Source: Escherichia phage SP15
Sequence record: AP019559
DNA: 64,000 nt
Reading direction: 5' to 3' (one strand)
Below the pieces are notes generated by a model. It saw nothing but the letters and a program-made list of their open reading frames with translations, did not search any database and was not told where the DNA came from. The first letter of the stretch is position 1; each line of letters starts with the position of its first letter. Both the position numbers and the translations under genes were made by a program. Below are positions 5,742-20,390 of this stretch, in pieces.

Positions 5742-7616
5742 ATGAATCGCAATGAAGAACTGAAGTATAAAGAAATGCAGGCGTTAATTAGAAACTGCAA
5801 AGAGATTATCGAAGGGTCAGCAGATGAAGAGCTGCTGTTTAATAATGCCAATAAACCCTCAGAACGTTTCCCTACACAAAGGGATATGCTTGCAGGTGAG
5901 TTGAGTAAGTATCTAATTCTAGAAGAAATGCCAATTCAGATTCGAAATGCTCATATGATTGGGGATATTCATTTCCATGATGCTGATTATGCTGCATTAG
6001 GCATGACTAACTGTTGCCTGGTAGCTCTGGAAGATATGTTGAAGAATGGTATGAAGGTTGGTAATGCTGAAATTAGCACTCCAAACTCTATCACTACTGC
6101 GGCGGCTATCACTGCTCAGATTATCACTCAAGTTAGCTCCCATCAGTATGGCGGTACTTCTGTAGATCGCCTTGATGAAGTATTAGCCCCTTATGTTCGT
6201 AAATCCTATGACAAAAATCATGCGTTTGCAAAACGTTGGACTAAGGATGAAGCCAAAGCATCCGTAATGGCTACGGAGATGACTGAAAAAGAAGTCTATG
6301 ATGCTTGTCAGGGTCTAGAGTATGAAATCAATACGATGTTCAACTCTAATGGTCAGAGTCCGTTTATTACCTTTGGCTTTGGTCTGGGAACTTCTTGGGA
6401 GGCACGTCTAGTACAGAAAGCAATACTGAAAGTACGTATGGATGGTTTAGGTATCAATAAACGTACAGCTATCTTCCCGAAACTGGTATTTGTGCTTCGT
6501 GATGGCGTAAATATGAAACCAGGAGATGTTAATTATGACATCAAGAAGTTAGCTATGAAATGTACTGCTGAACGTATGTATCCAGATTATATCAGCTATG
6601 ACAAAGTTGTAGAAGTTACTGGAGACTACAAAGTTTCTATGGGCTGCCGTTCATTCCTAGCTGCTACAGAAGATGGTGAAACTGCCGGTCGTAATAACTT
6701 AGGTGTTGTTTCTGTAAACTTGCCTAGAATTGCTATCGAAGCTGAAGGAAATATTGACCTATTCTTTGATTTGCTTGAGCTACGTGTGGATACAGCGTTA
6801 AAAGCATTGGAGTGGAGAGTTGATCGCTTAAAATACATTCAAGCTAAAGCTGCGCCCATCCTCTATATGTCAGGAGCCTTTGGACTGCGCTTGGAGCCTG
6901 ATGAATATGTATTCGATCATTTCTATAACCGTGCTTCTGTATCTCTAGGGTATATTGGTTGCCATGAAATGCTACAGTTCATGTTTGGCAAAGATGTAGA
7001 CACAATGTCCGAGACCTGCATCAAGTTTGTTCAGCGTGTATTGCAGTACATGCGGGATAGAGTAGATCAGAAGAAGGAAGAAACTAAGTTAGGTTATAGC
7101 CTGTATGCTACACCATCAGAGTCCCTGTGTGACCGTTTTTGTCGTCTAGACCGTGAATATTTCCCGGAGCATGAAGATATTCTGTCCAAAGGATACTACA
7201 CTAACTCTCACCACCTTGATGTGGAACGTAAAGTTGCTCCTAACGTCAAATTTGATTATGAGTCTAACTTTACTCCTATTGCTTCTGGTGGGTGCATCTC
7301 CTATGTAGAATTACCGGATATGAAACGATTCCCAGATGCACTGGAATGGGTTATTAATTATGCTGCTAGTAAGGTTCATTACTTCGGTATTAATACTCCA
7401 GTGGATTCTTGTGGTAAATGTGGATTCTTAGGTGAAACAATAGCATCCGAAGATGGATTTAAGTGCCCTATCTGTGGTAATCATGACCCCGAAACTCTTG
7501 AAGTAACTCGCCGAGTTTGTGGGTATCTTGGAAATCCAGGTGCTCGTCCATTTAACCCCGGCAAACAGCACGAGGTGATGGGTAGAGTTAAGCATCAGGA
7601 TATTCGAGCTAAGTAA
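5742..7616 (+). CDS. nrdD: Anaerobic ribonucleoside-triphosphate reductase (class III)
   Basis: 624 aa; C-terminal zinc ribbon CGKCGF...CPICG and glycyl-radical motif RVCGYLG. Confidence 0.85.
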   Translation: MNRNEELKYKEMQALIRNCKEIIEGSADEELLFNNANKPSERFPTQRDMLAGELSKYLILEEMPIQIRNAHMIGDIHFHDADYAALGMTNCCLVALEDMLKNGMKVGNAEISTPNSITTAAAITAQIITQVSSHQYGGTSVDRLDEVLAPYVRKSYDKNHAFAKRWTKDEAKASVMATEMTEKEVYDACQGLEYEINTMFNSNGQSPFITFGFGLGTSWEARLVQKAILKVRMDGLGINKRTAIFPKLVFVLRDGVNMKPGDVNYDIKKLAMKCTAERMYPDYISYDKVVEVTGDYKVSMGCRSFLAATEDGETAGRNNLGVVSVNLPRIAIEAEGNIDLFFDLLELRVDTALKALEWRVDRLKYIQAKAAPILYMSGAFGLRLEPDEYVFDHFYNRASVSLGYIGCHEMLQFMFGKDVDTMSETCIKFVQRVLQYMRDRVDQKKEETKLGYSLYATPSESLCDRFCRLDREYFPEHEDILSKGYYTNSHHLDVERKVAPNVKFDYESNFTPIASGGCISYVELPDMKRFPDALEWVINYAASKVHYFGINTPVDSCGKCGFLGETIASEDGFKCPICGNHDPETLEVTRRVCGYLGNPGARPFNPGKQHEVMGRVKHQDIRAK

Positions 7617-14875: not shown

Positions 14876-15092
14876 AAAATGGGAAACAAGGAAGTTTCCA
14901 GTAAAAGAACGCAAAGTTCCTGTTTATGATACTTCGGAGAAGCTATGTAGGGTGGTACCGCATAGATTAGCTGGTATCCCTAACATATCCGAGTGGTTAC
15001 TTAAACAACGGAGGACTAACGTATCTCTTCGCGTAGGGTTTGAGTTAGATAAAGTATATGCTGAACTTTCTTCTTTGCTCAAAGAATCATAA
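14859..15092 (+). CDS. Hypothetical small basic protein
   Basis: ORF overlapping helicase stop; weak RBS. Confidence 0.25.
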   Translation: MTVKNKKWETRKFPVKERKVPVYDTSEKLCRVVPHRLAGIPNISEWLLKQRRTNVSLRVGFELDKVYAELSSLLKES

Positions 15093-15101
15093 AAAATTTA
15101 T

Positions 15102-15130
15102 TTGCTTTCAGGAAAAATTTTCTGTATAAT
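15102..15130 (+). promoter_or_regulatory. Strong early promoter, near-identical to the T5 PN25 promoter as I recall it
   Basis: TCATAAAAAATTTATTTGCTTTCAGGAAAAATTTTCTGTATAATAGATTCATAAATTTGAGAGAGGAG; -35 TTGCTT, 17 nt, -10 TATAAT. Confidence 0.8.
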
Positions 15131-15161
15131 AGATTCATAAATTTGAGAGAGGAGTTTAAAT

Positions 15162-16110: not shown

Positions 16111-16127
16111 CTACTTAAAAATTTCAG

Positions 16128-16156
16128 TTGCTTAATCCTATAATTCTTGATATAAT
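16128..16156 (+). promoter_or_regulatory. T5-type early promoter (TTGCTT, 17 nt, TATAAT)
   Basis: Consensus hexamers with 17-nt spacer upstream of 16214 ORF. Confidence 0.55.
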
Positions 16157-16213
16157 ATTCTCATAGTTTGAAAGAACTATTCTGTTTAATTCTTAATTAA
16201 GGAAATATAAAAT

Positions 16214-17008: not shown

Positions 17009-17317
17009 ATGAGCGAACAGGTAAATCAAAACTATGAAGGACACGTTGATGACCAGTCCATCATACTTTGGGAGAAGGAGGGGGAACAAGTAAGATTAAC
17101 AGTATCTGAATTTCGTGGGAATCTATACATGGGTATTCGTTACTGGCTTCTTGATATTAATGATGAATGGTTTCCAACGAAATCTGGCTTCTCTTTTCCT
17201 TACACCCTAGAAACAACATCACAGCTTTTCTATGCGTTTACACAGATTCTTAGCGAATCTGAGGTTTTACATGAAGTACAGAAACGAGCTGAAGAACTCA
17301 AAGCCAAGAATGCCTAG
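17009..17317 (+). CDS. Hypothetical protein
   Basis: 102-aa ORF followed by terminator. Confidence 0.5.
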   Translation: MSEQVNQNYEGHVDDQSIILWEKEGEQVRLTVSEFRGNLYMGIRYWLLDINDEWFPTKSGFSFPYTLETTSQLFYAFTQILSESEVLHEVQKRAEELKAKNA

Positions 17318-17333
17318 TTCTTGGCTTTTTCTT
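17303..17333 (+). terminator. Rho-independent terminator
   Basis: Hairpin AGCCAAGAA...TTCTTGGCT followed by TTTTTCTTT. Confidence 0.65.
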
Positions 17334-17344
17334 TATAAATGTAT

Positions 17345-17373
17345 TTGCTTTCAACTCAGTTTTGTTATATAAT
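17345..17373 (+). promoter_or_regulatory. T5-type early promoter (TTGCTT, 17 nt, TATAAT)
   Basis: Consensus hexamers; downstream ATAAATTAATGAGAGGA leader. Confidence 0.55.
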
Positions 17374-17403
17374 ATTTATATAAATTAATGAGAGGATTGC
17401 AAA

Positions 17404-17676
17404 GTGAAAAAGATAAATATAAGTACACTTAAACCTTTTCCATATATCGGACAGCCTCTCATCCTCATGTGGGAGGAAAAGATTAATGGGGAAAAGTATA
17501 CTAAAACTAGAATTGGGTATAAACTGATTTCACTTTATTACGAAAAAGAAGTATTAATAGCTGAAATATACTCTCCATTATCGGATAGGCTAGTAAAAAC
17601 TACATATTTGCATCTTTGCAAAAATTATACGTGGCACGGATCTACCAGACAACCCACGTACTATGAGGCAGAATAA
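17404..17676 (+). CDS. Hypothetical protein
   Basis: 90-aa ORF (GTG start) directly upstream of ligase gene. Confidence 0.4.
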   Translation: MKKINISTLKPFPYIGQPLILMWEEKINGEKYTKTRIGYKLISLYYEKEVLIAEIYSPLSDRLVKTTYLHLCKNYTWHGSTRQPTYYEAE

Positions 17677-18648
17677 ATGACTAATGTAAAAGAATTTATT
17701 AAACGCTGTCAAGAAGCATATTATCGGGGTATGTCTTTAATCTCTGATGAGGAGTATGATTGCCTGGTAAAACGCTTCCCGTTAGAAGAAGAGATCGGGC
17801 CTAAGGGTGATATTCCACATCTGTACCGTATGTATTCTTTACAGAAAGTTTATTATAATCGTGGGGATAAACCACCATTTAATCCTTTAGGTCAGGTAGA
17901 AACTGATAAGTTAGATGGTTGTGCAATTTCTCTGCTATATATTAACGGCGAATTTGTTCAAGCACTAACTCGTGGTAATGGTATTCTAGGGAATGATGTC
18001 ACAAGCAACGTAAGACTGCTGAATATCCCTAAAAAGATTTCCCAAAAAGTACCAACTCAAATCACTGGTGAAGTTCTAATTACAAAAGAAGTAGAAAATA
18101 AACGTAACTTTGCCTCTGGTGCTATTAACCTCAAAGATAGTGATGATTTCGTACAACGTATCGGGGAAGGTGGTTTAATCTTCGTTGCATACGGTATCCA
18201 GTGTTCTGCCGAATCTGTAGGTATTACAGAAGCATACTTAAAAGATATGCTTTGGCTAGAGAATGAGAACTTCTTAACAGTTGTTAATGTGCGTTCCTTC
18301 TTTAAATGGATTCCGACGGACGGTAAAGTTGTTCGTATTAATGACAACAACAAATTCTTCCGAGAAGGCTGGACTAATAAATTCCCTCGCGGGGCGTTCG
18401 CTATTAAAGAGGATGAAGAAGGCGAGATTACAACTCTTACTAAAGTTGAATGGCAGGTAGGGGCTTCTGGTAAAGTAACTCCAGTTGGTTATTTCGAACC
18501 GGTAATTATTGATGATGCTACAATTGTTAAAGCGACTCTTAATAACGTTGATTATATTAACTCTCTCGATCTAGAGATCGGTTGCCAGATTCGAGTGATT
18601 CGTGCTGGTGGTGTAATCCCGTGCATAGTAGAGCGAGTATACGATTAA
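17677..18648 (+). CDS. ligA: NAD-dependent DNA ligase, N-terminal part (adenylation and OB domains)
   Basis: KLDGCAISLLYINGEFVQALTRGNGILGNDVT matches LigA KxDG and TRGDG motifs; ends before the zinc-finger/HhH/BRCT part. Confidence 0.75.
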   Translation: MTNVKEFIKRCQEAYYRGMSLISDEEYDCLVKRFPLEEEIGPKGDIPHLYRMYSLQKVYYNRGDKPPFNPLGQVETDKLDGCAISLLYINGEFVQALTRGNGILGNDVTSNVRLLNIPKKISQKVPTQITGEVLITKEVENKRNFASGAINLKDSDDFVQRIGEGGLIFVAYGIQCSAESVGITEAYLKDMLWLENENFLTVVNVRSFFKWIPTDGKVVRINDNNKFFREGWTNKFPRGAFAIKEDEEGEITTLTKVEWQVGASGKVTPVGYFEPVIIDDATIVKATLNNVDYINSLDLEIGCQIRVIRAGGVIPCIVERVYD

Positions 18649-18698
18649 CTAACAACCCTTTGCTACCCATCTACCATATCGGAATTATAAAGTGGTTA

Positions 18699-18727
18699 TT
18701 GACATTTTCGCCGCTTAGGTATATACT
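18699..18727 (+). promoter_or_regulatory. Sigma70 promoter (TTGACA, 17 nt, TATACT) within the ligase spacer
   Basis: Consensus hexamers between the two ligase ORFs. Confidence 0.5.
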
Positions 18728-18791
18728 ATTATCATTCAGTTGAGGGATAGAAAGTTATGGCGAGGGTAAGCAAAGTTAGTTAAAATTGTAG

Positions 18792-18820
18792 TTGCTAAAT
18801 GCTTAAATACTTGCTATAAT
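18792..18820 (+). promoter_or_regulatory. T5-type early promoter (TTGCTA, 17 nt, TATAAT)
   Basis: Directly upstream of second ligase ORF; ATAAATTGATAAGGAAG leader. Confidence 0.55.
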
Positions 18821-18850
18821 ATTTATATAAATTGATAAGGAAGAAATTTG

Positions 18851-19630
18851 ATGAAAATCGAAATTCCAACACAATGTCCCTCTTGTGGTTCTAAGCTCGA
18901 TCTTGTCAACGGACAATTATTCTGTCGTAATAAGTCCAACTGTCCAGCACAATCAAGTAAGTTAATTGAGAACTTCTGTACAAAAATGAAGTTAAAGGGT
19001 TTTGGCCCAAAAACTATTGAGAAGCTGGAGCTGACGAAGATTTCAGAACTATTTTACCTAACCGAAGAAGATTTGGTTAGAGCCGTGGGTAGCAAGGTTG
19101 CCGCTAAGTTAATTAGCGAATTAAATACTAAAGTTCGCGGAGACATTGACTTTGGTTCAGTTCTCGGTTCTTTAGGAATCCCTCTAATTGGAGAGGTTGC
19201 AGCAAAGAAATTATCCCAAAATTGCACTAGCTTCCACGATGTGAAGGCTGACGGCAAGGCTGGAGAAAACTATAAAGCCTGGCTAAATTCCACACAAGGC
19301 AAGGATGTTATCGAATTACCGTGGAAATTCACAACTGGTATTAAAGGTGCTAAAGCCGAGGTCATCATTACTGATGGTCTAGTAGCCCAACCAAATGGAA
19401 TAACGGTATGTATTACCGGATCTTTGCAAGATTTTGCAAATAGAACGGATGCAACAAACTATCTAGAAGGTCTAGGGTATACTGTTAAAAAATCAGTTAC
19501 CAAAGACGTTAAATACCTAATCTGTGAGGATGAATCTAAGCGTTCTTCCTCATCTTATAAGAAAGCCGAAACGAATGGGATAGAAATCCTGTCGATTAAA
19601 GAACTATTGGAGAAAAATAATAATGTCTAA
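18851..19630 (+). CDS. ligA: NAD-dependent DNA ligase, C-terminal part (zinc finger, HhH, BRCT-like)
   Basis: N-terminal Cys cluster CPSCGS...CRNKSNCP, then GFGPKTIEKLEL helix-hairpin-helix. Confidence 0.7.
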   Translation: MKIEIPTQCPSCGSKLDLVNGQLFCRNKSNCPAQSSKLIENFCTKMKLKGFGPKTIEKLELTKISELFYLTEEDLVRAVGSKVAAKLISELNTKVRGDIDFGSVLGSLGIPLIGEVAAKKLSQNCTSFHDVKADGKAGENYKAWLNSTQGKDVIELPWKFTTGIKGAKAEVIITDGLVAQPNGITVCITGSLQDFANRTDATNYLEGLGYTVKKSVTKDVKYLICEDESKRSSSSYKKAETNGIEILSIKELLEKNNNV

Positions 19631-20390
19631 ACTGAACTGGAACGTAGAGGGTGTAACCGAGTCTCTGAAAGCAAAAGCCACTGCTCTGGGTGTTGATGTA
19701 ATCTCTCAAGAACAAGTAGCTGCTATCGCTGCTGAACTGGCTGCTGAAACTGGCAAAGACGTTACCGCTCGCTCTGTTGGCTCTAAGCTGCGTAAAGAAG
19801 GTTTCGAAGTACAGAAAGCTAACGAAGTACAGAAATCCCCGTGGACTCCTGAGCAGGAAGCTGAACTGGTTGATTTCCTGAACGCTCATGCTGGTCAGTA
19901 TACTTATGCTGAAATCGCTGCTGCTGTAGCTGGTGGTCAGTTCGGTGCTAAACAGGTACAGGGTAAGATCCTGAGTCTGGAAATGACCGCTTCTGTTAAA
20001 CCAACTGAAAAAGCTGCTGCTGTTCGTTCCTTCACCCCTGATGAAGAAACTGATTTTGTTAACCAGGTTGTTGCTGGTGCTACTATTGAAGCTATCGCTG
20101 CTCACTTCGGTCGCAATATTAAGCAGATCCGTGGTAAAGCTCTGAGTCTGCTTCGTGAAGGTCGTATCGCCGCTATGCCGGTACAGGAAACTTCAAGTGC
20201 TAAAACTCGTGAAGATCTGTTAGAAGGTCTGGATCTGGCTAACATGACCGTTGCTGAGATTGCTGAGAAAACTGGTAAGTCTGAGCGTGGTGTTAAATCT
20301 ATGCTGTCTCGTCGTGGTCTGGTTGCTAAGGACTATGATGGTGCCGCTAAGCGTGCTAAACTGGATGCAAAAGCTGCGGCTGCTGAATAA
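19623..20390 (+). CDS. Four-repeat HTH (sigma70 region 4-like / HeH-like) DNA-binding protein, Ala-rich, host-optimal codon usage; possibly the abundant early DNA-binding protein (T5 D5-like)
   Basis: Four ~45-aa repeats each ending in an xIAxxxGxxxxxVxxxxSKLR-like helix-turn-helix; CTG/GCT/CGT/GGT codon bias unlike neighbours. Confidence 0.6.
   Translation: MSKLNWNVEGVTESLKAKATALGVDVISQEQVAAIAAELAAETGKDVTARSVGSKLRKEGFEVQKANEVQKSPWTPEQEAELVDFLNAHAGQYTYAEIAAAVAGGQFGAKQVQGKILSLEMTASVKPTEKAAAVRSFTPDEETDFVNQVVAGATIEAIAAHFGRNIKQIRGKALSLLREGRIAAMPVQETSSAKTREDLLEGLDLANMTVAEIAEKTGKSERGVKSMLSRRGLVAKDYDGAAKRAKLDAKAAAAE

Follow-up and report, generated by a model that had tools for sequence, protein, structure and literature searches.

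Escherichia phage SP15 belongs to the T5-like phages (genus Tequintavirus), and in the 64,000-nt stretch of its DNA that we analysed (sequence record AP019559; referred to as the window) the parts of an NAD-dependent DNA ligase are distributed over two genes. An earlier interpretation from the letters alone, here called the sequence-only reading, had proposed that the ligase must function as a two-subunit enzyme unless the spacer between the genes is the remnant of an inserted element, and had named splicing as the alternative to two polypeptides. This raises the question whether the two halves work together as separate chains or are joined during or after expression, and how the split came about. 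The features of the locus are compiled in Table 1.

Table 1. Features of the split ligase locus. Positions refer to the window.
Feature	Position	Strand	Description	Basis
Terminator-like hairpin	17300-17328		precedes the T5P35 equivalent	
T5P35 equivalent	17329..17398	+	predicted to serve orf90 and ligA	67/70 identical to T5P35 of AY587007
orf90	17404..17676	+	90-aa ORF, phrog_35018, function unknown, not part of the ligase; abuts the ligA start	ORF call, PHROG
ligA (dnlj1)	17677..18648	+	323 aa (subunit A); shortened domain Ia, nucleotidyltransferase domain, OB fold	Pfam, PHROG, PDB, EcoLigA alignment
Intergenic spacer	18649..18850		202 nt; stops in all three forward frames, no conserved ORF	
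T5P36 equivalent	18682..18751	+	putative early promoter; core 18699-18727	70/70 identical to T5 annotation
T5P37 equivalent	18775..18844	+	early promoter; core 18792-18820	70/70 identical to T5 annotation
ligB Shine-Dalgarno sequence	18837..18843	+	AAGGAAG, 7 nt upstream of ATG	
ligB (dnlj2)	18851 (ATG)..19630	+	259 aa (subunit B); Cys4 zinc finger, reduced HhH, BRCT	Pfam, PHROG, PDB, EcoLigA alignment
D5 DNA-binding protein gene	19623..20390	+	8-nt overlap between its start and the end of ligB	

The upstream half had been read as the adenylation/OB portion of a ligase from its KLDG and TRGNG motifs, and the ORF together with its Pfam matches confirmed this (DNA_ligase_aden, PF01653, 83.5 bits at a cutoff of 27; DNA_ligase_OB, PF03120, 78.4 bits). 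Residues 1-323 of subunit A matched positions 1-325 of the 325-position profile phrog_3359 (E 1e-175), HMMER aligned the protein to PDB chain 9hu3_A (E 3e-103), and it could be aligned to residues 1-393 of E. coli LigA (EcoLigA), with a domain Ia that is about 25 residues shorter. The adenylatable lysine is kept (K78 in the KLDG motif, EcoLigA K115), as are the other catalytic residues (EcoLigA/phage: D117/D80, R136/R99, E173/E132, D285/D215, K314/K244) and G81, while the motif IV lysine, EcoLigA K290, is replaced by Arg220 (codon 18339-18341). An arginine also stands at this place in the Providencia phage structure sequence (DGKVVRI/DGLVRRV versus DGVVIKV). In EcoLigA, the use of NAD+ is conferred by the domain Ia residues Y22, H23, D32, Y35, and D36. 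Four of these five are kept in subunit A (EcoLigA/phage: Y22/Y16, D32/D24, Y35/Y27, D36/D28), and H23 is changed to R17. Subunit A hence carries both LigA-family characters expected of this half, the nucleotidyltransferase domain with the KxDG lysine and motifs III, IV, and V as well as the NAD+ residues of domain Ia.

For the downstream half, the assignment of the zinc-finger, HhH, and BRCT modules and of a separate ribosome-binding site, both already seen by the sequence-only reading, held up. Besides the ATG listed in Table 1, there is a TTG at 18848, 3 nt further upstream; the N-terminus of subunit B reads MKIEIPTQCPSCGS. A purine-rich site comparable to the AAGGAAG in front of ligB was found in all relatives. 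The zinc finger follows the pattern CxxC...C...C (C9, C12, C25, C31), BRCT was detected by Pfam (35.1 bits), and HhH gave only weak, sub-threshold matches (24.4 bits versus 27). The same region aligned to the HhH domain of LigA with E 2e-10. Residues 1-258 of subunit B matched positions 1-255 of the 256-position profile phrog_3498 (E 3e-136); its HMMER match to PDB chain 9hu3_B had an E value of 8e-80, and it aligned to about residues 400-671 of EcoLigA with one HhH repeat missing. Taking both genes together, the OB fold, Cys4 zinc finger, HhH, and BRCT modules of the LigA family are all present, and only the single polypeptide is absent: the two ORFs lie 202 nt apart, with stop codons in all frames between them.

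Aligning the phage proteins to bacterial LigA, which the sequence-only reading had recommended for defining the break point, showed subunit A to end opposite EcoLigA 393. Residue 8 of subunit B pairs with H407, which directly precedes the first cysteine of the zinc finger. This puts the cut at about EcoLigA 394-399, in the flexible linker that connects the OB fold with the zinc finger.

Such a locus is not new. It is the two-gene (ligA/ligB) NAD-dependent DNA ligase typical of T5-like phages, real and already known, and the guess of the sequence-only reading that split ligases are annotated in these phages proved right. Subunits A and B are named in hundreds of T5-like records, and the T5 reference record is complete in this respect: AY587007 (T5 ATCC 11303-B5) annotates dnlj1, dnlj2, the putative early promoters T5P36 and T5P37, and copy 5 of repeat b at the equivalent spots. 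Both genes, both promoters, and the idea of two subunits have thus been part of the T5 annotation since the mid-2000s, which leaves little for discovery. In our literature search for biochemical or structural studies of the split ligase, we found only genome announcements naming subunits A and B, plus a T5 promoter paper. The PHROG collection holds one dedicated family for each half, phrog_3359 with 325 and phrog_3498 with 256 positions. The locus also shows the cut in the OB-Zn linker, the order of A upstream of B on one strand, and the synteny of a PC4-like gene followed by ligA, ligB, D5, helicase, and primase; it fully qualifies as a T5-type LigA/LigB pair (PHROG 3359 and 3498). Two observations go beyond the existing annotation, namely that the promoter cores are invariant across genera and that an unsplit ligase of 555-578 aa occupies the same syntenic slot in uncultivated T5-like phages.

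The spacer had been described as about 200 nt with two consensus promoters, and this description was correct. It has a GC content of 32%, compared to 39% for the window, and contains two sigma-70-like sites, the P36 core TTGACA-17-TATACT (11/12 match) and the P37 core TTGCTA-17-TGcTATAAT (10/12 match, with an extended-10 TG). Repeat b lies within T5P37 at 18815-18839. The P37 equivalent is also annotated in phage AKFV33, with the T5 consensus TTGCTT-N17-18-TATAATA. When the dinucleotides of the spacer were shuffled 5000 times, two plus-strand sites matching at least 10/12 positions arose in only 0.5% of the shuffles (P = 0.005). Over the surrounding 2.7 kb, the total number of promoter-like sites was not above chance (6 found, 7.5 expected), so that it is their score, position, and conservation that speak for the two promoters. 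We aligned the spacers of the window phage, T5, phiR2-01, S132, KpGranit (Sugarlandvirus), and My1 (Myunavirus), which represent three genera. Both promoter cores and their spacing, an AAAATT upstream of P37, and the ribosome-binding region were invariant, while the intervening sequence has drifted. Read as a comparative alignment, these invariant blocks are a phylogenetic footprint of function. An 8-codon mini-ORF in the spacer (MARVSKVS, 18758-18784) was rejected as a gene, being frameshifted in KpGranit and deleted in My1.

The elements of P37, a TTGCT -35 region, the TG-extended TATAATA, and the downstream ATAAATTGA, are common to at least 12 other intergenic promoters of the window, which by these motifs assigns P37 to the T5 early promoter class. 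In the window, at least 14 promoters have the architecture AAAATT..TTGCT-N17-TGnTATAATA..ATAAATTTGAGAGG. Three regions (15090-15160, 16116-16170, and 44765-44700 on the minus strand) presumably correspond to the classic T5 promoters known from expression vectors, namely PN25, P26, and PD/E20 with the 'RBSII' AAAGAGGAGAAATTAACTATG. P37 also has the ATATT discriminator, which has been described as characteristic of every known T5 early promoter (PMC7472727). The spacer is an ordinary T5 early-promoter intergenic region. No terminator was found after ligA.

Taken together, the locus very probably encodes an NAD+-dependent ligase in the form of two separate polypeptides that would assemble non-covalently into an enzyme equivalent to LigA. 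Subunit A would contribute the NAD-specific residues of domain Ia, the adenylatable lysine, and the OB fold, and subunit B the DNA-binding and clamp-closing modules, that is, the zinc finger, HhH, and BRCT. The predicted heterodimer would equal the single-chain LigA and may seal nicks and Okazaki fragments in the nicked genome of the phage. That the enzyme has two subunits, as the sequence-only reading had assumed, is supported by PDB entries 9HU3 and 9I5I, in which homologues of both halves occur as separate chains, as well as by the annotations in T5-like records. Chain B of these entries matches the protein of the T5-like Providencia phage vB_PreS_PR1/PSTCR5 with 100% identity in the 163 residues tested, and the presence of both halves in the same entries supports, by analogy, a two-subunit enzyme for the window phage.

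In terms of expression, ligA would be transcribed from T5P35, and ligB, D5, and the downstream replication genes by read-through combined with initiation at P36 and P37, which we take to be host sigma-70 promoters. This pattern is suggested by the lack of a detectable terminator after ligA and by the overlap of ligB and D5. With read-through and additional initiation both serving ligB, subunit B is probably made in excess of A. D5 shares a transcription unit with ligB, downstream of T5P36/P37, and their 8-nt overlap (19623-19630) suggests translational coupling.

We then looked at the split across phages. In all Demerecviridae genera that we sampled (Tequintavirus, Epseptimavirus, Sugarlandvirus, Myunavirus, Novosibvirus, and Thalassavirus, as well as other Vibrio phages), the cut was at the identical position. 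The gap between ligA and ligB ranged from 191 to 1051 nt across the sampled genera and sometimes contained extra genes. It measured 191-205 nt in T5, phiR2-01, KpGranit, and My1, 344 nt in Proteus phage RP7, with a 55-aa ORF inside, 361 nt in Salmonella phage S132, and 443 nt in Vibrio phage D386, whose gap contains two small ORFs. The S132 gap carries a 156-nt insertion right after the ligA stop (L011 2811-2966), with an unannotated 59-aa ORF without PHROG match, which indicates that the gap is used as an insertion site even in close relatives. The gap of about 1 kb in the Vibrio phages AG74 and KIT04 harbours a DprA-like gene for a recombination mediator (phrog_768; L005 1449-2344 and L006 1690-2247) and, in AG74, a 113-aa ORF in addition. 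This DprA-like gene was the sole identification in a PHROG scan of the gap ORFs of these other phages, and no mobile-element genes were detected among them.

Unsplit relatives bear on the origin of the split. Subunit B was used for a HMMER scan over 1.84 billion cluster representatives, and the best 131 classifiable matches were counted; the classified set additionally took in six phage B subunits and E. coli LigA. Among these best matches, 106 of the 131 were standalone B subunits, mostly of 230-270 aa and starting a few residues before the zinc finger, and 10 were ligases in a compact fused form, 555-578 aa long and 33-41% identical to subunit B. The gene order around one of the latter, P0107 on metagenome contig L015, is as in T5: PC4-like gene, fused ligase, D5 homologue (44% identity, E 2e-57), DnaB helicase, and primase. 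The start of this D5 homologue follows the stop of the ligase gene at a distance of 2 nt. Another fused ligase, P0031, is encoded near a gene with a Phage_T5_A2 domain. The compact unsplit enzymes of uncultivated T5-like phages (P0107, P0031, P0088, P0117, and others) share the streamlined domain set with the split pair, and P0107 also the synteny, but they are encoded by one ORF without an intergenic promoter region and have 17-29 aa between 'IIP' and the first cysteine. In the split forms, the tail of A and the lead-in of B comprise 6-8 aa each and together fall short of the linker of the fused forms by only about 3-6 residues. Since the linker is nearly all accounted for and an unsplit ligase occupies the same slot, we read the split as a clean fission within the linker; gene fission would explain these sequences, and a fusion of two genes is possible, too. 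A neighbor-joining tree built from 128 B-domain sequences grouped the split with the compact fused forms, apart from the long bacterial LigAs. The tree was star-like and gives neither direction nor number, and was therefore rejected for counting fission events. Inside the fused gene of L015, an 11/12 sigma-70-like site with an extended-10 TG was noted at 6992-7020, about 30 nt downstream of the codon for the first zinc-finger cysteine; as a promoter near the T5-type cut site, it is indistinguishable from chance.

Compatible with the two-subunit model is the claim that the spacer is what remains of a promoter cassette or mobile element once inserted into an ancestral single ligase gene. The unsplit ligases of 555-578 aa in the PC4-ligase-D5-DnaB-primase context are in line with this claim, and so are the use of the gap as a variable cargo site (the ORFs of S132 and RP7, the DprA-like gene of the Vibrio phages) and the presence of a repeated promoter element, repeat b, within T5P37. 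However, the spacer has no similarity to the cargo genes of the other genera, and neither a transposase or endonuclease nor terminal repeats were seen. Point mutations creating a stop and a start could likewise split a gene, with the promoters evolving later, and the tree, which lacks direction, accommodates a two-gene fusion as well. We therefore regard an insertion origin as possible but rather unlikely. As for the inserted-element alternative of the sequence-only reading, the spacer is a normal T5 early-promoter region and does not demonstrate an insertion; the unsplit relatives do indicate that a fission took place at some point. A more elaborate scenario appears still less probable and is offered as speculation: a compact ligase of about 560 aa, of a form that would survive to this day in uncultivated relatives, may have undergone fission in the T5 lineage in connection with an early-promoter cassette in the OB-Zn linker, which would have uncoupled expression, provided an excess of B together with D5 and perhaps a second role for B (e.g., binding the natural genome nicks), and created a conserved site at which accessory genes could land. 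As the tree shows split and fused forms interleaved, fission or re-fusion may have occurred repeatedly.

The two halves might also not constitute one enzyme at all, with A acting as a minimal stand-alone ligase and B, expressed with D5, as an independent DNA- or nick-binding factor. Domain deletions of LigA have shown that Ia-NTase-OB alone is poor at nick sealing, which counts against such separate roles. The additional promoters of ligB, the suggested translational coupling to D5, and the probable excess of B would fit with them, and minimal NTase-OB ligases do exist among ATP-dependent enzymes (PMC12133292). But A and B are neighbours in every genome examined, both are found together in 9hu3/9i5i, and the unsplit relatives present A and B as one functional unit. 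Hence, we consider separate roles quite improbable and maintain that the halves would form a single enzyme.

A joining of the two ORFs across the spacer, be it by RNA splicing, a split intein, read-through, or frameshifting, could be suspected, because the halves are adjacent, have the same orientation, and together make up a complete LigA, and because T5-like phages carry mobile elements such as homing endonucleases (PMC4319617). The spacer, however, contains 7, 5, and 7 stop codons in its three frames, ligA is read in another frame than ligB, and no Rfam intron family matched the spacer, the best hit scoring 15 bits against a gathering score of 35. Moreover, conserved promoters lie in the gap, which in other genera accommodates entire unrelated genes, e.g., the DprA-like one; ligB has its own ribosome-binding site and ATG; and in the solved homologue the two chains have their termini at the gene ends. 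Since each half aligns with LigA over its entire length, there are no extra residues at the junction from which intein halves could be made. The splicing alternative of the sequence-only reading is thereby excluded at the level of the sequence, read-through and frameshifting likewise appear effectively excluded, and we see hardly any chance for a joined product of whatever kind. Finally, that the split reflects a mistake in sequencing or assembly, or a pseudogene in decay, can be dismissed as practically inconceivable. A single frameshift or stop may mimic a split gene in one genome, but this architecture is present in 427 phage records at the DNA level and 990 at the protein level (at least 80% query coverage each), recurs in independent genera with 44-71% protein identity, and has both halves retaining full-length, high-scoring PHROG matches.

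The preferred reading, two chains forming one ligase, makes the locus a clean natural case of a multidomain enzyme that is cut at a linker and predicted to act as a heterodimer, which is of use when split ligases are to be designed by protein engineering. The locus further illustrates how phage genomes place promoters inside what was formerly a single gene.

Compared to known systems, the closest counterpart is T5 ATCC 11303-B5. Gene sizes, a gap of 202-205 nt, T5P36 and T5P37 (70/70 identical each), repeat b, and the flanking PC4-like gene and D5 are the same, and its spacer is 97.9% identical to the 241-base query from the window. T5 lacks the 90-aa ORF between T5P35 and ligA and otherwise shows point differences only. 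This ORF, which in the window sits between the T5P35-type promoter and ligA, is also present in T5_ev212, and KpGranit has a similar ORF of about 91 aa at its position, the likeness being one of size and place. AKFV33 and S132 are without it like T5, and in all three the promoter directly abuts ligA.

With bacterial LigA (E. coli, PDB 2OWO), the phage pair shares the domain order Ia, NTase, OB, Zn, HhH, BRCT, the catalytic lysine and motif residues, the NAD-contact residues of domain Ia, and the zinc-finger cysteines, three of the four being in aligned columns and the third one two columns off. LigA is a single chain of 671 aa, whereas the two chains of the phage enzyme add up to 582 aa, domain Ia being shortened, NTase loops deleted, one HhH repeat missing, and K290 exchanged for Arg. 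Judged by its domains, the phage pair is a streamlined yet complete LigA, and its kinetics may differ from those of LigA given Arg220 and the missing HhH repeat. Finally, 9HU3 and 9I5I contain a chain A named 'DNA ligase (NAD(+))' and a chain B named 'DNA ligase subunit B', with chain ends corresponding to the gene ends; they differ from the pair described here in coming from another genus, with an A subunit of 332-339 aa that has small insertions and a B subunit of 248 aa.
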